Source of the DNA: Alphaproteobacteria bacterium
GTDB taxonomy: Bacteria > Pseudomonadota > Alphaproteobacteria > RF32 > CAG-239
Direction of reading: 5' to 3'
Length of the DNA stretch: 64,000 nt
Assembly (NCBI GenBank): GCA_045633945.1
Contig: JAZQZH010000016.1
Coordinates: forward strand, 7,620 to 71,619
The position numbers were made by a program, and so were the translations under genes. This document shows, piece after piece, positions 3,892 through 48,856 of the stretch (position 1 is its first letter; each line of letters opens with the position of its first letter). The notes below the pieces were generated by a model. The model worked only from the letters and a program-made list of their open reading frames with translations. It had not been told where the DNA came from and did not search any database.

Positions 3892-4665
3892 ATGAGAAAA
3901 TATATCTATATATGCAGTTTATTTTTCACACTAGCGCTCCAACCTGCGTATGCCCAAAAATATGAGTATACGGGACATACGCCCCCTACTTATATAAATA
4001 TAAATGGTGAGCAATATGTCCGCATTCCTCATAAACGCCAAGCAAAAAAATATTCTCATTACACACTCTCACCTTTAACAAAAATTAAGCCATACATTGG
4101 ACTAAACATAGGATATAACAAACTAGATAGAATAACTCCTGAAGATGAGCACATAACAGAACTTTCATATGTATCTTACGCTAAATTACCTCAAAAAAAT
4201 ATATCCCTATCAGGAATTTTGGGCTTACAATTAAATCATAACTTTAGCCTAGAAGCTTATTATCAAAGCACTATTGCTAATGATAAAAAAAATGGGACAA
4301 CAACTATTACCATCCCACTTGTGGACGCAACATATAATACCAGCACATCAACTCAATTATCATTTAAATCATATGGAATAGATTTTATATACAACACACC
4401 AATATTTAGCCAAAATATTGAACTCCTTTTAACTCTAGGACTTGGTTCTTACAATATAAATAGCAAATACGTATTAAACCCACACGGAGATAATATATTC
4501 TCATCTTCAAATAAAAGTATTGGATACAGATTCGGATTCGGTGGACAATATAACTTTAACGAACACATCTCGTTAACCACAATTCTACGCTATATCAAAC
4601 TAACCGACGATAAAATAATCAATAATATATTTGAACTCTCAACCGGTATAAAATATTCTTTTTAA
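3892..4665 (+). CDS. small outer-membrane beta-barrel protein (OmpA-like TM / porin-family)
   Basis: Signal peptide ending AYA-Q, alternating amphipathic strands, C-terminal ...GIKYSF. Paralog of the partial ORF at 63517 (shared SYGIDF motif). Confidence 0.7.
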   Translation: MRKYIYICSLFFTLALQPAYAQKYEYTGHTPPTYININGEQYVRIPHKRQAKKYSHYTLSPLTKIKPYIGLNIGYNKLDRITPEDEHITELSYVSYAKLPQKNISLSGILGLQLNHNFSLEAYYQSTIANDKKNGTTTITIPLVDATYNTSTSTQLSFKSYGIDFIYNTPIFSQNIELLLTLGLGSYNINSKYVLNPHGDNIFSSSNKSIGYRFGFGGQYNFNEHISLTTILRYIKLTDDKIINNIFELSTGIKYSF

Positions 4666-7342: not shown

Positions 7343-10300
7343 ATGAAAGACCCCAAATTTGTGCATTTAAGAGTTCACACAGCATACTCTCTTGCTGAGG
7401 GGGCTATTATGCTTCCCAAACTTATGCATAAACTTCACGATATGGGTGTTCCAGCTATAGCCGTAACAGATAGTGCAAACATGTTTGGGGGTAAAGCTTT
7501 TTCCAAATATGCCGCAGATGAGGGTATAAAACCTATAATGGGCTGCCAATTTTTATTGCGAAATAAAGATTCAGACAACATTCTCCTATCAAAAGGTAAA
7601 GAATTAGATCCAGATAAAATTGTTTTACTCGTAATGAATAGCACTGGCTACGAAAATATTATGAAGCTAATGAAGCGTTTTTATCTAGACAACACCTCAA
7701 AAGGGTGGTCCCCTCAACTAACAATCGAAGACCTTAAAAATTATAATGAAGGTTTAATTGCTTTAACAGGCGGAACAGAAGGACCAATAGGTCGCCTACT
7801 TCTTGAAAATAGAAAACAAGAGGCCATAGATATTGCCACAAAACTAAAAGATATATTCAAAAACCGCTTATATATGGAAATATCAAGAATAGGCACAACC
7901 GACGAACAAAAAACAGAAGAAGATTTTATAAATATAGCTTATGAACATAATATTCCACTTGTAGCAACCAATGAAGTATTCTTCTTAAATGAAGAAATGT
8001 TCGAAGCTCACGATGCTCTTGTATGTATATCTGCAGGAGAATACGTTGCAAACGAAACAAGACGCCGTTTTTCCATTAATAACAGACTACGCACAGAAGA
8101 TGAGATGGTTGAGTTATTTCAAGACTTACCCGAAGCTCTAAACAACACTGTTCGCATTGCAAAATTATGTAATTATTTATCTAAAAAAGTTGATCCTCTT
8201 TTACCCATATTTGAGTGCCCAAATGGTAGAACACAAGACGAATTTATTACAGAAGAAGCATTCAATGGTCTTAATGATAGAATGCAAAAAGCAGTTTACC
8301 ACGATGGCTTAAGTAAAGAAGAACGTTTAGCTATTGATGAAAAATATTACAAACGCCTCGAGTACGAATTAAGCGTTATCAAAAAAATGGGATTCCCCGG
8401 ATATTTTCTAATCGTGTCAGATTTTATTAAATGGTCAAAAGCTCACGGAGTATCTGTTGGACCAGGACGTGGTTCTGGTGCTGGCTCCATTGTAGCATGG
8501 GCATTAAAAATTACCGAATTAGATCCAATAAAATTAGACTTACTTTTTGAGCGTTTCTTAAATCCAGAGCGTGTAAACATGCCTGACTTTGACGTGGACT
8601 TCTGCCAAGAAAACCGCTACAAAACTATCGAATACGTACAAGAAAAATATGGTTTTGATCATGTTGCACAAATCATAACCTATGGTAAATTACAATCCAA
8701 AGCCGTAATACGAGATGTTGCTCGTGTTCTTCAAATGCCATACTCACAAGCAGATAAAATATCAAAGATGATACCTGCTGGAGTTCAAGGCAAAAACCCC
8801 ACTCTTCCAGAAGCGTTAGAGCAAGTTCCTGAGCTTGAAGAAATGCGCCAAAATGACCCACAAGTAAACAAGCTATTTGAAATAGCAATTAAACTTGAAG
8901 GTTTATACCGTAACTCAGGTATGCATGCGGCTGGTGTCGTTATCGGAGATCGACCTCTAGAACAACTAGTACCATTATACAAAGACCCTAGAGCAGACAT
9001 GCCTGTTACCATGTATGATATGAAATATGTAGAAGAAACAGGTCTAATCAAGTTTGACTTTTTAGGCTTAAAAACCCTAACTGTAATCCAGCGAGCTATT
9101 GATTGGATAAAAATATCTCAAGGTATTGATGTTGACATGGAGACAATTCCTCTAGATGACGATGCCACCTATAAAATGCTACAAGACGGAAAAACCACCG
9201 CTGTCTTCCAATTCGAATCTGCTGGCATGAAAGATGTTCACAAACAAATAAAGCCAGACCGTTTTGAAGACTTAATAGCTATTGTATCATTATACCGTCC
9301 TGGCCCAATGGACAATATCCCAACATTTATTAAAAGAAAACACGGCGAAGAAGAAATTCAATATTTGCACCCAGCACTTGAGCCAATATTAAAAGAAACA
9401 TATGGCATCATGGTATACCAAGAACAGGTTATGATGATTGCTAGAGAGCTCGGTGGTTACACCATGGGTGGTGCAGATAAATTGCGTAAAGTAATGGGTA
9501 AAAAAATGCGTGATGAAATACCAAAACAACGCATAATGTTTACAGAAGGTGCCATAAAAAATGGCATAGATGAAGAAGTTGCAAAAAGCATTTTTGACCA
9601 AATGGAAAAATTTGCCTCTTACGGTTTTAACAAATCCCACGCAGCAGCATACTCTCTAGTTTCTTATCAAACCGCATACCTAAAAGCTCATTACCCTGTT
9701 GAGTTTATGTGTGCAGTTATGGATTTAGATATAACTAACACTGACAAACTTGCAACATTCAAAGCTGAATGCAAAGCTCTTGGTATTGATGTGCTAAAAC
9801 CAGACATAAATGAATCTCTCGCTAAATTTAGTGTTCAAAATGGCAAGCTAAGATACGCATTAGGTGCAATCAAAGGTGTTGGTGAAGCTAACATGAATGC
9901 TATCATAGAGGCTCGTAATAAAGGTGGAAAATTTAAAGACATTTCAGATTTCATAAATCGTGTAGATGCAAAACAACTAAACCGCAAACAGTTAGAACAA
10001 CTAATCAAAGCTGGTGCTTTTGACAGTATAGAACCTAAAAGAGGTAAATTATTTGCCAATATAGATACAATATTAAAAAACATATCATCTGCAACAGAAA
10101 TGAAAACAAGCTCACAAAGCTCTCTCTTCGGTGCAGAAGAATATTCTTCAAAAGTAAAGCTTTTTGATGCTCCAGACTGGCCTGATTTAGAAAAACTACG
10201 CATAGAAGCTGGGGCAATAGGTTTTTATATATCTGCTCACCCTCTAGATGTTTATCAAGACAGTATGAAAAAACTTGGAGTAAAAACTTGTTTTGAAGTA

Positions 10301-18415: not shown

Positions 18416-18907
18416 ATGCAGTCATTATTATCAAAAATTAAGCAGTTTTTTAGTGGATCTAAAAAACAAGCTACAACAAAAGAGCAACCAGGTTCTAACC
18501 CCAAAAAACAGCAAAACACTGAACCGACACAAACTCCACCCAAAATCACGGCTCCATCAATTTCAGCCGAAGAAAAGAAGGTGAGAATTGCTCTAGAAGA
18601 TATTGATCTTCAAAACCCTGAAAGAAGCGAAAAATTCTTAGAGATAATCCCTGTGCTTCACAAGTACAGTATTGCTCTTAGTTTTATTAGCAGATACAAC
18701 AAGGTTGCCGCTTATTACTCAAAGACCATTCTAGACCAAAACGGTAACAGACTACCTTTTGAAATAGAAAAAGCCATCATAGAAAGTAAGCACTGCAACC
18801 TTTTATTTGAACTTTCAATTCAGGGACACAAGTGGAGTAACAACGCAAAAGAATTGATGAAGCAACATCACCGCGTTGTGTACTGTCATCTATTTGGTTA
18901 TATATAA
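18416..18907 (+). CDS. hypothetical protein with a disordered Pro/Gln/Lys-rich N-terminus
   Basis: 163-aa ORF with its own terminator downstream. No motif recognised. Confidence 0.45.
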   Translation: MQSLLSKIKQFFSGSKKQATTKEQPGSNPKKQQNTEPTQTPPKITAPSISAEEKKVRIALEDIDLQNPERSEKFLEIIPVLHKYSIALSFISRYNKVAAYYSKTILDQNGNRLPFEIEKAIIESKHCNLLFELSIQGHKWSNNAKELMKQHHRVVYCHLFGYI

Positions 18908-43291: not shown

Positions 43292-44974
43292 ATGGCAAAT
43301 ACTGCAGAAATTATGATTCCTGAAATGACAGAAAGCTTCGCTGACTTGTTAAATGAACAATTCGGTGAAAAAGGTATTGTTGGTTCTGTTATGAAAGGAA
43401 CTGTTATCCGTGTAACTGATGACTTTGCAATCGTTGATGTTGGTTTAAAGTCTGAAGGACGCATTCCTTTACGTGAATTTGGTAGAAATGACGACATCAA
43501 TGTTGGTGACGTTGTAGAAGTTCTCGTTGATAGATACGAAGATAAAGATGGCAACATCGTATTATCTCGTGAAAAAGCTCGCCGTGAAGAAGTATGGCAA
43601 GATCTCGAAAAATTAATGAACAACAACGAAAGAGTTAACGGTGTTATCTTCGGTCGTGTTAAAGGTGGTTTCACTGTTGATCTTAACGGTGCTATTGCTT
43701 TCTTACCTGGTTCACAAATCGATATTCGCCCAATTAAGGATATTGCTCCATTAATGGGTATTTCTCAACCATTCCAAATCTTAAAAATGGATAAGGTTCG
43801 TGGCAACATCGTTGTATCTCGCCGTGTTGTATTAGAAGAAACACGCGCATCTGCTAGAGCAGAACTCATCGACACAATCAAAGAAGGTGCAGTTCTTGAA
43901 GGTATTGTTAAAAACCTCACAGAATATGGTGCATTTATTGATTTAGGTGGTGTTGATGGCTTGTTACACGTAACAGATATTTCTTGGAAGAGAATTAACC
44001 ACCCAGCAGAACTCTTGTCTTTAGGTCAAACAATTAAAGTACAAGTTATTAAATTCAATGAAGATACTCAACGCATCAGCCTTGGTATGAAACAATTAGA
44101 AAACGACCCATGGCAAGCTGTTGCAGACAAATTCCAAGTTGGTGAAATTTACAACGGTAAAGTTACAAACATCACTGACTACGGTGCATTCATTGAGTTA
44201 GAAGATGGTATTGAAGGTTTAGTACATGTATCAGAAATGAGCTGGACACGTAAAAATGTTCACCCAGGAAAGATTGTTTCAACATCTCAAGAAGTTGAAG
44301 TAAAAGTACTAGAAGTTGATATCGACAAGCGTCGTATTAGTCTTGGTATCAAACAATGCACTCCTAACCCATGGGCTGCATACATTGAAGAACACCCACT
44401 TGGTTCAGTTATTGAAGGTAAAATCAAAAACATCACAGAATTTGGTTTATTTATTGGTTTATCTGATGAAATTGATGGTATGATTCACTTATCAGATATT
44501 TCTTGGGAAAAATCTGGTGAAGAAGCTGTCAAAGACTACACCAAAGGTCAAACAATTGAAGCCAAAATCATCGATGTTGATGTAGAAAAAGAACGCATCA
44601 GCCTTGGTATTAAGCAAATGTCTGAAAACAATATTGCTATGACATTAGAAACTTTGAAAAAAGGTGACATTGTTAAAGCTATTGTAACAGGCGCTGATGA
44701 CAAAGGCGTACAAGTAACAGTTCAAGGTGTTTCTGCTACAATTAAAAAAGCAGACTTATCTAAAGAAAATAACGACCCATTAAGCTACAACGAAGGCGAT
44801 GTATTAGAAGCTAAATTAACTTCTGTTGATCGCAAAAATGCCAAATTAGGCCTTTCAGTTAAAGCTTTTGAAGCAGAAGAAGAAAAGAAAGCTATTGAAG
44901 AATATTCAAATGCTCAATCTTCTGGTTCTGCTTTGGGTGATGCTTTAGGTGAAGCATTGAAGAATAAAGAATAA
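43292..44974 (+). CDS. rpsA: 30S ribosomal protein S1
   Basis: Six S1 repeats (G.V..IT.YGAFI.L..GI.GL.H.SE.SW type). I prefer the ATG at 43292 over the TTG at 43277. Confidence 0.95.
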   Translation: MANTAEIMIPEMTESFADLLNEQFGEKGIVGSVMKGTVIRVTDDFAIVDVGLKSEGRIPLREFGRNDDINVGDVVEVLVDRYEDKDGNIVLSREKARREEVWQDLEKLMNNNERVNGVIFGRVKGGFTVDLNGAIAFLPGSQIDIRPIKDIAPLMGISQPFQILKMDKVRGNIVVSRRVVLEETRASARAELIDTIKEGAVLEGIVKNLTEYGAFIDLGGVDGLLHVTDISWKRINHPAELLSLGQTIKVQVIKFNEDTQRISLGMKQLENDPWQAVADKFQVGEIYNGKVTNITDYGAFIELEDGIEGLVHVSEMSWTRKNVHPGKIVSTSQEVEVKVLEVDIDKRRISLGIKQCTPNPWAAYIEEHPLGSVIEGKIKNITEFGLFIGLSDEIDGMIHLSDISWEKSGEEAVKDYTKGQTIEAKIIDVDVEKERISLGIKQMSENNIAMTLETLKKGDIVKAIVTGADDKGVQVTVQGVSATIKKADLSKENNDPLSYNEGDVLEAKLTSVDRKNAKLGLSVKAFEAEEEKKAIEEYSNAQSSGSALGDALGEALKNKE

Positions 44975-44993
44975 TCTTCAACAAAACACTAAA

Positions 44994-45029
44994 AACCCCT
45001 CAGGTATCTACTTGAGGGGTTTCTTTTTA
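44994..45029. terminator. terminator between convergent rpsA and the small secreted-protein gene
   Basis: AACCCCTCA...TGAGGGGTT 9-bp stem followed by TTCTTTTT. Confidence 0.75.
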
Positions 45030-45033
45030 TACA

Positions 45034-45294
45034 CTAATTATCACTTTCAATAACAACTGTATCATCTTCTTCCAAAACAGGCACCATAGAACTAGAAGAC
45101 TGTGTAGGAGCAACCATAACACCTTCATCTTCTGGTAAAGGTTGCATATCAGTATCACCTGGCGATGATGGTGTAATTGTTTCAGAAATTACAACACCGC
45201 TAATGTACCCTGATTCATCATTTTCAGCAATAGCTTTATTAACAAATAACGCTATCGCTACAACAGACAAGCACCCTAAAAAAAATTTAAACAT
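45034..45294 (-). CDS. small secreted acidic Ser/Pro-rich protein
   Basis: Signal peptide MFKFFLGCLSVVAIALFVNKAIA-E, then a low-complexity acidic region. The start at 45294 is preferred over 45321. Confidence 0.45.
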   Translation of the reverse strand: MFKFFLGCLSVVAIALFVNKAIAENDESGYISGVVISETITPSSPGDTDMQPLPEDEGVMVAPTQSSSSMVPVLEEDDTVVIESDN

Positions 45295-45350
45295 TATAAA
45301 ATCCTCCATATTAAAAAACAAAACAGATATAATGTTAGTTTTGCTTTTTT

Positions 45351-45380
45351 CAACAAAAAAACGGTGGAAAAATCCACCGT
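45351..45380 (-). terminator. intrinsic terminator after the OMP gene 45385..45975
   Basis: ACGGTGGA/TCCACCGT 8-bp stem with a T-run on the minus strand. Confidence 0.7.
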
Positions 45381-45384
45381 AATT

Positions 45385-45975
45385 TTAGAAATAAAACCTC
45401 ATGCCTCCGTTTATCAGCCACCCCCAGCAATTTTTGCCTCTACCACCAAAAGGCATTGTTTGGTAGCGCGCATCCACATACAAACCAAAACGACTTGTAA
45501 TATCAACCGCTCCAGATAGACCAAAACCAAAATAAGGCTTCTCGTGATGTCTATAAAAACGTCCGTCGCAACCATAATTATAACAACAATAATCATAGAA
45601 GCAACAATCGTATCCCCTGTGCCAATCCTCCTGTAAAGAATAACCTGTACTAACAATAGCTGCAAGATATCCCCTATCACCCTGAATAAACTTCATACCA
45701 AGATTAACACCAACAGTCATGGTTGATAAATCCTTATGGTCTAAGCCATTACTCTGTTTCATAGATAAATATGAAACTTCAGCCTCACCAAGGATAAAAC
45801 TATACTCTGCACCAACCCTCAGACTAGCAATCGGAGATGTTTGTCCTTTAACAATCGATACACCTGAGCCAAAAGACAAATAAACACCATCATAGCGATC
45901 TTGAGCAACCGCTCTTTCTGAACAAACGACACCAGCAACAAACATTGCTAATATCGCAAAAACATAACTTCTCAT
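45385..45975 (-). CDS. small outer-membrane beta-barrel protein with a Cys/Tyr-rich loop
   Basis: Signal peptide ending AVA-Q, amphipathic strands, C-terminal ...GGMRFYF. One loop reads GYDCCFYDYCCYNYGCDG. No SD upstream. Confidence 0.65.
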   Translation of the reverse strand: MRSYVFAILAMFVAGVVCSERAVAQDRYDGVYLSFGSGVSIVKGQTSPIASLRVGAEYSFILGEAEVSYLSMKQSNGLDHKDLSTMTVGVNLGMKFIQGDRGYLAAIVSTGYSLQEDWHRGYDCCFYDYCCYNYGCDGRFYRHHEKPYFGFGLSGAVDITSRFGLYVDARYQTMPFGGRGKNCWGWLINGGMRFYF

Positions 45976-46030
45976 ATATAAATAATTTTTAATTTCAAAA
46001 GTATTATAGCACTATTTTTTATCTTTTTCA

Positions 46031-46069
46031 ACAAAAAAGCAGAGAAATGGAAAAAACCATTTTCTCTGC
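46031..46069 (-). terminator. intrinsic terminator after the OMP gene 46079..47098
   Basis: GCAGAGAAATGG/CCATTTTCTCTGC long stem with a T-run on the minus strand. Confidence 0.7.
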
Positions 46070-46078
46070 TAATTAATA

Positions 46079-47098
46079 CTAAAAAGCCTTCAAGGCTCTC
46101 AGCTCCTTGTTCGAGATGTTCTTAACCCTGTTCTTATAAAGACCAAAGTTAAATGACGTTCTCACATAGAGCGAACTGCTCGTGATCGGGCTCTCGTTAA
46201 GCACGATACCACTATGGTATCTCCAGCCAACATCGAACGAGACACTATTACCCGTTGCAAACATACGATACTCATATCGAATACCTGCAGTTGGATAAAG
46301 ATAGTTGCCCCATGATGTGATAAAGGTCTCATAATTTCCATCTATCACTGGTACGCTGTTAGTTCCGTAATACTCAAAACCCAAACCAGCAAAGGCAAAT
46401 AATCTGTGCTGATCAAAAGCATCAAGCTTAAATGGGCGAACACCAAAAATAAGCTCTGTTCGATAAGTATTATACCTCTTGCCTGGGTTTGCAGAATACT
46501 CCGTAAACTTTGACCAGCCGTACTCAGCGCTAAGACCAACAGTCCAATAGGGCTGTGAAAATCTAACACCAACACCACCAATCGGCGAAACAAGATCAGA
46601 AGAAACCTGACATCCAGCATAGATGTTAAGGTCCCAACCATACTTATCTGCAGCCTTTTGGACAATCTTACCAGCATCCTTATCGTCATCTGAAACACCT
46701 TTAAGCCCATCAACATAAGCGTAATAAGTATCTCTAAATCTATCATTATACAAACTCTCTACAACACGTGTATCAAGCTGCTTCTGATAAAGACCCTCTT
46801 CATCAAGATAAACCTCACGCACCACAAAAGTATCGTTAGCCATCTTAAATCGCCCATCGCTGCCAACGAAATACTTTGAAACATAGTACGTTGTAGAAGA
46901 ATCAAAAACCTCAATTCTGTTTACAACACGCAAGGTGTCTTTAGAATGTTCTGTCAGATACCCCTTAATCGAAGCCTCCGACCACTCATTGGTATGAAGT
47001 GTCATACCATTAATAACTCTAGACTCTTGAGCACTTGCGCTTACAGCAACAAATGCAAGGACTACCATCATTGTAGCCTTAACAAATAAATTTCTCAT
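46079..47098 (-). CDS. outer-membrane beta-barrel protein (339 aa)
   Basis: Signal peptide MRNLFVKATMMVVLAFVAVSASA-Q is identical to that of 47375..48109. The C-terminal half is beta-barrel-like. No SD upstream. GC-richer than its surroundings. Confidence 0.65.
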   Translation of the reverse strand: MRNLFVKATMMVVLAFVAVSASAQESRVINGMTLHTNEWSEASIKGYLTEHSKDTLRVVNRIEVFDSSTTYYVSKYFVGSDGRFKMANDTFVVREVYLDEEGLYQKQLDTRVVESLYNDRFRDTYYAYVDGLKGVSDDDKDAGKIVQKAADKYGWDLNIYAGCQVSSDLVSPIGGVGVRFSQPYWTVGLSAEYGWSKFTEYSANPGKRYNTYRTELIFGVRPFKLDAFDQHRLFAFAGLGFEYYGTNSVPVIDGNYETFITSWGNYLYPTAGIRYEYRMFATGNSVSFDVGWRYHSGIVLNESPITSSSLYVRTSFNFGLYKNRVKNISNKELRALKAF

Positions 47099-47217
47099 AG
47101 TTTATGATTGTTTTTTTAATTTATTCAAAAAAACACATTGATCTAATTTAAAGCTCTTAATGATTGACTCTTTATTGGTAAGACAATTTCACAATAACTT
47201 CTAAAATAATCAACATG
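47027..47217. repeat. direct repeat copy A (191 bp): 119 bp upstream region plus 24 signal-peptide codons
   Basis: By-eye alignment with 48038-48227 gave one substitution (47152 A vs 48163 G) and one 1-nt indel near 47200. Confidence 0.9.
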
Positions 47218-47338
47218 TCACATATTTTAACACCACGATTTTACCATATATATTTTATATTTTCAACACCTTTTTGCCAAAATTGTCAAAATTTATCTAA
47301 AAAACATAGTATTTAAACAAAACACATCGTATTTAAAA

Positions 47339-47364
47339 TAAAAAAGGGTGAGATAACTCACCCT
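47339..47364 (-). terminator. intrinsic terminator after the OMP gene 47375..48109
   Basis: GGGTGAG-ATAA-CTCACCC hairpin with a T-run on the minus strand. Confidence 0.7.
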
Positions 47365-47374
47365 AAACACGCTA

Positions 47375-48109
47375 CTACTTAGGTCTAAACATAAACGCAA
47401 CACCCGTGTTTATATATGGACCCGAGTGCTTAAAGTCTTGCTTACCATGAGAGTGAATAACTCTCGGATAGATATTATATCCACCCTCGCAAACAAACTT
47501 TACTCTAGGAGCCAAACTTGCAGATATTCTAAGACCAGCGCCACCAGTAAAACCAAAGTTTTTTGAATAGAACTGAGCCTCTCTTTTATCTGTCTGTTGC
47601 AAACCATAGCCAGCACCAACAACTATCGCTAAATAATTGCGACAAAGTCTGTCCTGCCATATCTTGTAACCAAAGTTTGCTCTAAACTGCCAAGTCGCAT
47701 AGTTGGTGCCGTAGCCCAACGACTCAACAGTATGTTTTTGGCGAGAAAACGTTGCCTCAACTTCAACAATCTGATGACACGTTTCAAACATACCTCTAAG
47801 AGTAACACTTGGATTTAACTGGCGATCAACATAGTTGCAACCTACAAGAGGCACAATACTAAAGTTGTGTCGTTGCCATCCAAGCATATTACGGTGCTCA
47901 GGATCAAAGACTCTAGTATCCCCTCTAAGAATACTCTCCTGCTCAGTCATGGTCAGCGAATCTGTTGTAGTATTTCTATACCTCTCAGCAATTCGAAGTT
48001 CTAGTTGCTTTTTTCCAGAAACTTTAACCCCTTCATTTTGAGCACTTGCGCTTACAGCAACAAATGCAAGGACTACCATCATTGTAGCCTTAACAAATAA
48101 ATTTCTCAT
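47375..48109 (-). CDS. outer-membrane beta-barrel protein (244 aa)
   Basis: Same 24-aa signal peptide as 46079..47098, but the mature part is unrelated. Beta-strand pattern present. No SD upstream. Confidence 0.65.
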   Translation of the reverse strand: MRNLFVKATMMVVLAFVAVSASAQNEGVKVSGKKQLELRIAERYRNTTTDSLTMTEQESILRGDTRVFDPEHRNMLGWQRHNFSIVPLVGCNYVDRQLNPSVTLRGMFETCHQIVEVEATFSRQKHTVESLGYGTNYATWQFRANFGYKIWQDRLCRNYLAIVVGAGYGLQQTDKREAQFYSKNFGFTGGAGLRISASLAPRVKFVCEGGYNIYPRVIHSHGKQDFKHSGPYINTGVAFMFRPK

Positions 48110-48227
48110 AGTTTATGATTGTTTTTTTAATTTATTCAAAAAAACACATTGATCTAATTTAAGGCTCTTAATGATTGACTCTTTATTGGTAAGACAATTT
48201 CACAATAACTCTAAAATAATCAACATG
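48038..48227. repeat. direct repeat copy B (190 bp)
   Basis: See copy A. Offset is 1011 bp, becoming 1010 bp after the indel. Weaker homology continues to about 48350 (vs about 47341 in copy A). Confidence 0.9.
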
Positions 48228-48349
48228 CTATAGTATTTAACATCACAACAATATCACATTTCTTTTATATTTTCAATATATTTTTTGCCAAAATTGTCAA
48301 AAATATATTTAAATATAGTATTTAAATAAAATGCACTGTATTTAAAATA

Positions 48350-48856
48350 CTATTTTATCTTTTTTCGAAGTAAAATATATAAAGCACCAGCCCCCCCTAA
48401 TGCCTCAGAAGGGTTTTTATAAGCTAAAATCAAAGAGCCAACATCCTCTGAAGATAACCACAAAGGAACAGACTTCCTCAACACACCTTTTGTACTAAAA
48501 ATCTCATCATCAACACCTTTACCTGTTATAATTAAAACACAGCGCAGACCGCTATTATAACTAGAAATAATAAAATCTAATACTTTTTCATGGGCATCTT
48601 TTTCTGTTATACCATGCAAATCTAAAACATCATCAACTTTAAAACTTTCTCTTTTAAAACGTTTGGCTAAAGAGCCATCCATCTGGGTAAAATCATCTTT
48701 TTTAACAGGCTTTCCCTTTGATAAAGCACTAAAAGCAACTGTTTTATCTTTTTTATTATTTAGATTAATTTCTTTTTGTGTTATTTCATAAGTATACTTA
48801 TTGTGTTTAATAGGCACAACGCCTTTAACAACATCTTCCCAACATTCATCTACCAT
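48350..48856 (-). CDS. Smr-domain protein
   Basis: DLHG.T...A...V..FI......G.RCVLIITGKG Smr motif in the C-terminal half. Confidence 0.85.
   Translation of the reverse strand: MVDECWEDVVKGVVPIKHNKYTYEITQKEINLNNKKDKTVAFSALSKGKPVKKDDFTQMDGSLAKRFKRESFKVDDVLDLHGITEKDAHEKVLDFIISSYNSGLRCVLIITGKGVDDEIFSTKGVLRKSVPLWLSSEDVGSLILAYKNPSEALGGAGALYILLRKKIK

Follow-up and report, generated by a model that had tools for sequence, protein, structure and literature searches.

How two neighbouring genes for dissimilar outer-membrane proteins (OMPs) come to share, and to keep, an almost identical 5′ part is the question raised by a locus of an alphaproteobacterium present on contig JAZQZH010000016.1 (assembly GCA_045633945.1). 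The analysed stretch of 64,000 nucleotides (nt), positions 7,620 to 71,619 of this contig, is referred to as the window; all coordinates are positions in the window, and all features of the OMP cluster lie on its minus strand. The open reading frame (ORF) list of the window contains three minus-strand genes, at 45385-45975 (196 amino acids, aa), 46079-47098 (339 aa) and 47375-48109 (244 aa), at the positions and on the strand where an earlier inspection of the DNA by itself, here called the sequence-only reading, had placed them. Contigs and scaffolds of relatives are designated by L-labels, sequencing runs by X-labels and related proteins by P-labels. The explanation which in our judgement best accounts for the locus as a whole, and in which we place considerable confidence, is that of a resident cluster of three beta-barrel genes in which 5′ parts have been homogenised by gene conversion.

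A near-identical module at the start of two tandem genes

A repeat search of the window returned a 173-nt direct repeat at 99% identity (47027-47199 versus 48038-48210) with a spacing of 1011 nt, and MAFFT alignment of 47027-47217 with 48038-48227 revealed just one substitution (T/C) and one 1-nt indel, in agreement with what had previously been counted by eye. The near-identical module extends over 119 nt before the ATG and exactly the 24 codons of the signal peptide (MRNLFVKATMMVVLAFVAVSASAQ), and ends at codon 25 (GAG versus AAT). Copy A, at the 339-aa gene, occupies 47027-47217 with 119 nt of leader, and copy B, at the 244-aa gene, occupies 48038-48227 with 118 nt of leader, each being followed by the 24 signal-peptide codons. 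Weaker homology, at 70-85%, continues upstream for a further stretch of approximately 120 nt, to about 47340 and 48349, as the sequence-only reading had also described. Module pieces of 39 nt and 35 nt gave no further match in the 64-kb window, with zero matches expected by chance, and a scan of GTDB species-representative genomes with a degenerate signal-peptide pattern matched one genome, with two copies that are both situated at the OMP locus; the statement that there are no further module copies applies to that one metagenome-assembled genome (MAG) only. The module is a local pair and not a genome-wide cassette. It would consist mostly of transcribed leader (approximately 130 nt, as judged from predicted transcription start sites) and a Sec signal peptide, and because it is made up of a leader and a signal peptide the proposal that it acts as a common expression and secretion cassette is plausible.

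A pair of this kind could be trivial if a chimeric or duplicated repeat had been introduced into the MAG contig by assembly. Contigs L002 (1-68) and L021 (1-65) indeed start at the repeat, L004 (2306-2405) and L019 (4771-4870) carry N gaps within it, and contig L003 is collapsed. However, a substitution and an indel distinguish the two window copies, whose flanks are also distinct, and the two-copy arrangement, with lineage-specific sequence, was recovered independently in L001, L004 together with L015, L005, L019 and L023. The repeat, about which the sequence-only reading had itself raised this doubt, is not an artefact, as its two-copy form is present in five independent assemblies of relatives, and we attach practically no weight to an assembly error as its source.

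Concerted evolution of the two copies

Comparison with relatives established that the two copies of the module are alike within a genome and dissimilar between genomes. Over positions -119 to +72 the identity within a genome amounts to 98% for the window, 93% for L001 and 98% for L005, as compared to 78% between the window and L001 and 55-59% against L005, and across six genomes the copies display 93-100% identity within a genome versus 55-78% between genomes. Both L001 genes carry the signal peptide MKRFF..ATLIVVLAFVAGSANAQE, and both window genes carry the one given above. In contrast, the region from -270 to -120 groups by orthology, with identities of 0.77 between the 244-aa genes of the window and L001, 0.82 between the corresponding 339-aa genes and 0.67 between the 244- and 339-aa genes of the window, and the mature proteins likewise group by orthology. 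Since the -270 to -120 region groups by gene and not by genome when the window is compared with L001, the duplication is older than the split of these two lineages.

The length of the tract that is shared between the two genes differs from lineage to lineage, being 190 nt (99%) in the window, approximately 290 nt (89-97%) in L001, approximately 310 nt (95-100%) in L004, 300 nt (99%) in L005, at least 525 nt (100%) in L019 and 838 nt (98.9%) in L023. In L005 (1962-4184), L023 (7001-9742) and L019 (4246-7029) copying has extended into the mature protein by 65-95 codons, and the 244-type protein of these lineages is chimeric, its mature part beginning with the first 65-95 mature residues of the 339-type N-terminal domain. 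As the tract enters the mature protein elsewhere, its edge at the signal-peptidase site in the window represents the end of homology and not a fixed functional boundary.

The high identity within genomes as compared to that between genomes, combined with an upstream region that follows orthology, agrees with the earlier suggestion that the module is kept by gene conversion, and makes repeated conversion between long-established tandem paralogues the likely process by which it is homogenised. An old tandem duplication would have provided the 244- and 339-aa genes with paralogous regulatory regions, the 5′ parts of which would since have been homogenised repeatedly through intrachromosomal gene conversion, i.e. 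non-reciprocal homologous recombination between direct repeats. In the window the homogenised part would comprise the last 119 nt of the approximately 130-nt leader and the 24 signal-peptide codons. Its downstream edge would lie where homology ends, at the signal-peptidase site here and approximately 85-95 codons into the protein in other lineages, and its upstream edge would vary by lineage. The consequence would be that post-transcriptional control, translation start and export signal are all shared by two different barrels, and we infer that selection also favours sameness of both 5′ parts.

Selection might be thought to suffice by itself, in which case no conversion would have occurred and the copies would be alike only because a functional leader and signal peptide are under strong purifying selection. 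The parts of the leader that are kept in all lineages (the box ATGTWGATTATTTT, its complement and a U-run, see below) are in keeping with such selection. The copies, however, share lineage-specific changes, synonymous and signal-peptide ones among them, with approximately 22% divergence between the window and L001 against 93-98% identity within each; in L004, L019 and L023 the identity also spans the whole intergenic region and approximately 90 codons; and both copies are seen to change in step within lineages. Such parallel identical changes render purifying selection insufficient and can be explained by copying between the paralogues, and for this reason we regard an account based on purifying selection without conversion as highly improbable.

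Variation at the locus

It had also been proposed that the direct repeats drive deletion or copy-number change, a proposal which the available contigs do not bear out. The only contig without the 244-aa gene, L003, in which smr is joined directly to a 340-aa gene, represents an assembly collapse: the missing gene is located on a 937-nt contig of the same assembly, L015, which is 100% identical to the same-strain scaffold L004, where an N gap falls in the repeat. No in-register junction was seen among Logan DNA and RNA unitigs, which at 150-960 nt are too short for testing junctions, and an out-of-register joint of 47079 to 48199 in run X20, which had 22 nt on one side, was discounted as unreliable.

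In the course of evolution the slot does undergo change, the gene order being reversed in L005 and L023 (339-type first) and the gene content being different in L021. Moreover, the 339-aa allele in the window has a mosaic make-up, with a signal peptide 100% identical to that of P0003, residues 96-150 and a C-terminus 100% identical to P0002 and a barrel 95-98% identical to P0004, which indicates that the locus also recombines between strains, and does so frequently.

Direct repeats at a distance of 1011 nt, a slot whose gene order and content differ between lineages (with the 244-type first here), mosaic 339 alleles and a contig devoid of the 244 gene could together be read as programmed variation, in which the repeats would allow frequent deletion, duplication or swapping with phase or antigenic variation as the result. 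Against this, the deficient contig is explained by assembly collapse, with the 244 gene on L015, and the Logan unitigs yielded no in-register junction; furthermore, both copies have a complete promoter and leader and both are represented in RNA assemblies, with no silent cassette or single expression site, and there is neither a recombinase gene nearby nor an invertible element, the repeats being direct. On this evidence programmed variation appears improbable, and homogenisation of a resident tandem pair is retained as the preferred explanation.

Distribution, composition and origin of the cluster

The OMP families are tiny, with 10, 6 and 6 clusters among 5.8 billion proteins (the last count is that of the 196-aa protein family; the other count of 6 leaves aside two matches that were due to nothing but the shared signal peptide). 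With a profile of the 339 family, 67 representatives were recovered among 1.84 billion proteins, most of which were not placed in context, in part because their contigs are short, and a scan of metagenome contigs with the family alignment yielded three contigs of approximately 1.1 kb with no useful context. All placed members are found in a single frame, consisting of secB-tim44-mltA-smr, the OMP genes, a gene for a small secreted protein and rpsA-adh-gmk-PALP-lptFG-ruvBA-oprB. This frame is kept from 86% down to approximately 28% protein identity, in genomes of 30-45% GC, and the slot from smr to rpsA is occupied alike in each of the distinct lineages or strains examined (8/8), all of them gut Alphaproteobacteria MAGs. 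The runs that hold the sequence derive from bovine and other gut metagenomes.

The sequence-only reading had taken the GC content, the absence of Shine-Dalgarno (SD) sequences and the style of signal peptide as signs that the cluster was acquired horizontally, with Bacteroidota as a conceivable source. The GC content of the three OMP genes is indeed elevated (39.8, 41.2 and 41.0%, as compared to 33.2% for the window and 31.5% for the comparison OMP gene at 3892), although the 42-47% that had been claimed is too high. The G+C content at third codon positions (GC3) is 0.289, 0.374 and 0.331, the other genes having a mean of 0.219 (sd 0.047), which corresponds to z-scores of 1.5 to 3.3. The codons used by the OMP genes are far from those of the rest of the window (GAG 77% versus 24%, AAG 72% versus 18%); the three genes avoid A at third codon positions, and the share of G-ending Lys/Glu/Gln codons, at 0.86, 0.59 and 0.56, places them at ranks 1-3 of 60, the other window genes having an average of 0.19 (sd 0.11). 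The absence of an SD was confirmed for all three, the energies of the duplex with the anti-SD being +0.4, +1.6 and +1.6 kcal/mol versus a median of -5.95 kcal/mol over 60 ORFs.

The difference in composition between the cluster and the rest of the window is real, but it is conserved across lineages. The codon bias, followed in window positions 45385-48109 and in L001, L004, L005, L008, L021 and L023, is kept in the OMP orthologues of all low-GC lineages, rpsA displaying the opposite tendency (0.04-0.13), and SD-less A/U-rich starts are kept in all lineages. As both features occur in all lineages, they represent old traits and not traces of a recent transfer. Candidates for the cause of the codon bias are selection tied to SD-less initiation or export, GC-biased conversion at a recombination hot spot, and repeated import from GC-richer relatives. 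Elsewhere in the window a further SD-less ORF was noted at 18416-18907 (+), with a GC3 of 0.341, which encodes 163 aa with a low-complexity Lys/Gln/Pro-rich N-terminus.

A recent acquisition of the cluster, for example from Bacteroidota, with the module being a foreign expression and secretion cassette, would account for genes that are GC-richer than their surroundings (40-41% versus 33%), for their GC3 and codon usage and for the missing SD. It is opposed by the fact that each related lineage examined, down to approximately 28% protein identity, has the cluster in this one slot, and that no placed member was seen in a different context. At the flanks, where smr and rpsA form the borders, there is neither an integrase nor a tRNA nor any other mobility gene; the promoters are of the sigma-70 extended -10 type, and a search by eye for the Bacteroidota-type TAnnTTTG found none at a consistent position; Pfam and NCBIfam scans gave no match to Bacteroidota-typical OMP families; and the codon bias and SD-less starts, which as traces of a recent transfer would fade, are found in all lineages. 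The signal peptides, too, are no sign of import from Bacteroidota, as native OMPs of the window share ends of the type A-x-A followed by Q. The placed homologues all reside in the smr to rpsA slot of related Alphaproteobacteria MAGs, that is, in sister alphaproteobacteria with the same arrangement, an outcome that the sequence-only reading had itself regarded as incompatible with import. A horizontal origin in its recent-transfer form is already contradicted by these findings and is, in our estimation, very unlikely; the cluster is lineage-specific and has been inherited vertically within a clade of uncultured Alphaproteobacteria from bovine and other guts.

Predicted promoters and leader RNA

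Each OMP gene forms a transcription unit of its own, with a sigma-70 extended -10 promoter and an intrinsic terminator. The layout of the promoters is TTGAAA, 17 nt and TGnTAnnnT, and their position, 132-153 nt ahead of the ATG, is shared by all lineages. A promoter scan of the window predicted that of the 244-aa gene at 48248-48276 (TTGAAA, 17 nt, TGaTATTGT), its layout being kept in all lineages, and that of the 339-aa gene at 47238-47266 (TTGAAA, 17 nt, TGgTAAAAT). From the ends of the -10 boxes (47238 and 48248), starts of transcription are expected near 47231 and 48241, so that the near-identical stretch would correspond to leader RNA and signal peptide. On the basis of the distance from -10 box to ATG, the mRNA of the 339-aa gene is predicted to have a 5′ leader of approximately 133 nt (47099-47231) and that of the 244-aa gene one of approximately 132 nt (48110-48241), both without an SD.

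Further upstream, a pattern search for the repeat TTTAAATAC returned only two matches in the window, each a direct repeat of two units, at 47309-47337 before the promoter of the 339-aa gene and at 48318-48346 before that of the 244-aa gene, and the repeat is conserved in L001, L004, L005 and L008. In all lineages two TTTAAATAC units situated approximately 20 nt apart are followed by TTGACAAttTTGGCAAAAAA just ahead of the -35 box, an arrangement that in the window occupies 47267-47340 and 48277-48349 (minus strand). These TTTAAATAC and TTGACAAttTTGGCAAAAAA elements may be binding sites of a regulator, the unit before the 244-aa gene included as a candidate.

When folded singly, the leaders of every lineage adopt one long hairpin of approximately 85-95 nt, for which RNAalifold gave a consensus of 34 pairs in a set of close relatives. 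In the closing stem a box, ATGT(T/A)GATTATTTT, pairs with its complement, and a U-run comes next; in the window and in the loci of relatives that were searched, the box was not seen away from these OMP genes. Copy A of the hairpin motif is located at 47123-47221, and copy B, with the box ATGTTGATTATTTT, the complement ATCAATGTG and a U7 run, at 48134-48231, where it is also evident in minimum-free-energy folds. A covariance model built from the close set assigned 89.3 bits to copy A, 96.7 bits to copy B and 22 bits to L019, and also found L008. In the closing stem, U-A to A-U exchanges were observed in L008 and, by eye, in L019, and a register shift, likewise by eye, in L005, and it was the closing stem only that was recovered when MAFFT and RNAalifold were applied to all lineages. 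An Rfam scan of 44900-48450 gave no match in the leaders at E ≤ 1, its five weak matches (E 0.2-0.7) being at terminators elsewhere. The data for the leader hairpin as a conserved structure are suggestive, not strong.

Between the hairpin and the AUG lies an A/U-rich, unstructured stretch without an SD, which would serve S1-type SD-independent initiation. One may speculate, though we consider it rather doubtful, that the leader is an undescribed cis-regulatory RNA which, by means of the hairpin with the box ATGTWGATTATTTT, the U-run and the A/U-rich start, governs SD-independent expression of the major small OMPs of this clade. The leader RNA could then attenuate transcription, stabilise the mRNA or offer a docking site to a small RNA (sRNA) or protein. 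Were this to be true, selection for identical control of the two barrels would be the reason why conversion tracts are retained, and the conserved avoidance of A-ending codons could share its mechanism.

Transcription of the cluster

Assemblies of gut metatranscriptomes include each of the three OMP genes, with depths of 3-15 that are within the range of those of enolase and rpsA, and the flanking smr and 86-aa genes are near 0. Run X2 contributed contigs at 45423-45966, 46105-47070 and 47372-47746 at depths of 4-15, with a depth of 14.8 for 46105-47070. The leader of the 244-aa gene is contained in RNA contigs at 48110-48173 (X6) and 48038-48242 (X25), the latter ending at the predicted start, which constitutes weak evidence in favour of that start as the RNA data consist of assembled unitigs of 150-960 nt that may contain DNA and whose ends are not reliably mapped. 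A metatranscriptome contig of X24 (47187-47337) joins copy-A-type upstream sequence to an smr-like 3′ end, which suggests a strain in which A-type upstream sequence adjoins smr and which might have a different conversion state or gene order.

The encoded proteins and neighbouring features

As read from the sequence, the signal peptides end in A-x-A type sites, MRNLFVKATMMVVLAFVAVSASA before Q in the 244- and 339-aa proteins and MRSYVFAILAMFVAGVVCSERAVA before Q in the 196-aa protein. AlphaFold2 (AF2) models calculated from the small family alignments attained a predicted local distance difference test (pLDDT) score of 68 for the 244-aa protein and 63 for the 339-aa protein, and contain eight long strands, at residues 82-241 and 154-320, respectively, with a pLDDT mostly of 70-90 in the barrel. 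In the 244-aa model the signal peptide is followed by a low-confidence helical region of approximately 55 aa and the 8-stranded barrel; the 339-aa model comprises the signal peptide, an N-terminal alpha/beta domain (approximately 26-110), a low-confidence linker, the 8-stranded barrel and a C-terminal helix. Foldseek matched the 244-aa model to NspA, Ail, OmpA and OmpX (E 8e-6 to 1e-4) and the 339-aa model to OmpA-TM, NspA, OpcA, OmpW and Ail, the top matches of both having a probability of 1.00 and a TMt of 0.58-0.74. According to these models the 244- and 339-aa proteins are small 8-stranded OMP barrels of the NspA/Ail/OmpX/OmpA-TM/OmpW class.

Pfam and NCBIfam scans of the three OMPs gave no match over a curated cut-off; OMP_b-brl (PF13505) reached 22.1 bits (E 1.9e-4) with the 244-aa protein, below its cut-off of 28.7, and did not match the 339- and 196-aa proteins, and an exact look-up of the 339- and 244-aa proteins returned no record. 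The 196-aa protein, a putative small barrel, ends in RFYF, with the classical closing aromatic residue, the 244-aa protein ends in FMFRPK, and in the 339-aa protein a helix extends beyond the last strand to the end LKAF. The barrels had been described as unrelated, and their mature parts are indeed barely alignable, but a weak kinship is discernible in that those of the 244- and 196-aa proteins are 27% identical over 168 aa and the C-terminal half of the 339-aa protein weakly matches the 244 family. The three barrels look like very old paralogues.

That each OMP gene possesses its own terminator had been noted previously and was verified, two of the terminators being found by a terminator scan, at 47345-47364 (read from 47364 to 47345) for the 244-aa gene and at 45361-45380 (45380 to 45361) for the 196-aa gene. 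The third, at 46033-46069 (46069 to 46033) for the 339-aa gene, was recognised by eye and went unreported by the scan; it consists of a bulged stem, GCAGAGAAAATGG/CCATTTCTCTGC, followed by T6. The promoter predicted for the 196-aa gene at 46003-46031 (TTGAAA, 17 nt, TGcTATAAT; 11/12 matches) is paralogous to the other two and precedes a short SD-less leader; the relation of the gene product to the other barrels was derived from alignment to the 244 barrel.

The slot also holds, outside the module, a minus-strand gene at 45034-45294, preceded by a GGAGG SD and native-like in its codon usage, the product of which is an acidic secreted protein of 86 aa. This gene is always positioned between the OMP genes and rpsA, and its products in relatives have 86-108 aa. 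Within rpsA, the region 43886-44617 (+) contains periodic direct repeats of 255-261 nt, an ordinary reflection of the S1 domains that recur in the protein; the ORF list gives rpsA a TTG start, whereas relatives begin at the ATG of MANTAEI, giving 560 aa.

Evaluation and significance

Several points weigh against the explanation advanced here. Conversion is deduced from patterns in MAGs and metagenome contigs, which are possibly strain mixtures, and recurrent re-duplication or replacement of 5′ ends would leave the same pattern. The transcription start sites are predicted ones, and the RNA unitigs may contain DNA. Concerning the hairpin, covariation was observed in just 2 of the 34 pairs of the close set, most of the stem being invariant; the fold z-score is -2.0 with the signal-peptide region and -0.2 without it; and the covariance model, applied with default filters, did not detect L005, the alignment being unused for pair statistics. 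Finally, the conserved codon bias is not accounted for by gene conversion.

The locus offers a natural example of a conversion tract that is limited to regulatory leader and export signal in a pair of dissimilar membrane-protein genes, and one which can be followed over six diverged lineages with differing tract lengths. It also serves as a warning that clusters with a high GC content, no SD and odd codon usage may be long-standing residents instead of imports, and that short-read assemblies of these gut Alphaproteobacteria are systematically broken or collapsed at the repeat described here, which generates false gene absences. In addition, it draws attention to two features of the main small OMPs in this uncultured clade of the rumen and gut, namely a structured leader that is conserved and a codon bias that has persisted.

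Comparison with known systems

The module is real and conserved in the clade, and its evolution is of a known kind; the loose ends are the leader RNA motif, which is possibly new, and the codon bias, which is conserved and unexplained. In the vsp/vlp genes of Borrelia hermsii, the vsa genes of Mycoplasma and the sap genes of Campylobacter fetus, a conserved 5′ segment provides the recombination homology in front of variable bodies, and these systems operate with one promoter and silent copies, or with a site-specific recombinase. Such expression-site cassette systems do not fit the OMP pair, because here both genes bear promoters and are transcribed, and no recombinase is present. The ompA mRNA of E. 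coli has a 5′ untranslated region of approximately 130 nt with stem-loops, which stabilises the mRNA and is a site of post-transcriptional control. The OMP mRNAs described here would likewise have stem-loop leaders of approximately 130 nt; unlike ompA, however, they lack an SD and carry a hairpin that is followed by a terminator-like U-run, and there is no similarity in sequence or in Rfam.

The closest analogue in layout is provided by the erp (ospE/ospF/elp) genes of Borrelia burgdorferi, in which an 'upstream homology box' comprising a conserved promoter and leader polypeptide precedes mature parts of many origins, with frequent recombination (PMC10016077). As in the erp genes, shared 5′ DNA and a leader peptide precede diverse mature parts. 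The erp products, however, are lipoproteins encoded on multicopy cp32 prophage plasmids, with up to approximately 9 loci per cell, whereas the OMP pair consists of two chromosomal tandem beta-barrel genes with two module copies and no prophage context, and its conserved piece is mainly a long structured mRNA leader.

With respect to mechanism, the closest analogue is found among the OMP paralogues of Helicobacter pylori (babA/babB, sabA/sabB/hopQ and homA/homB), in which RecA-type intragenomic conversion homogenises one segment and yields chimeras (PMC3960876). Both cases have in common that one segment is homogenised within a strain and the rest diverges. In the bab and hom genes of H. pylori it is the 3′ segment of dispersed loci that is concerned, whereas in the pair described here it is the leader and signal peptide, and in some lineages the N-terminus, of adjacent genes whose mature parts are barely alignable.

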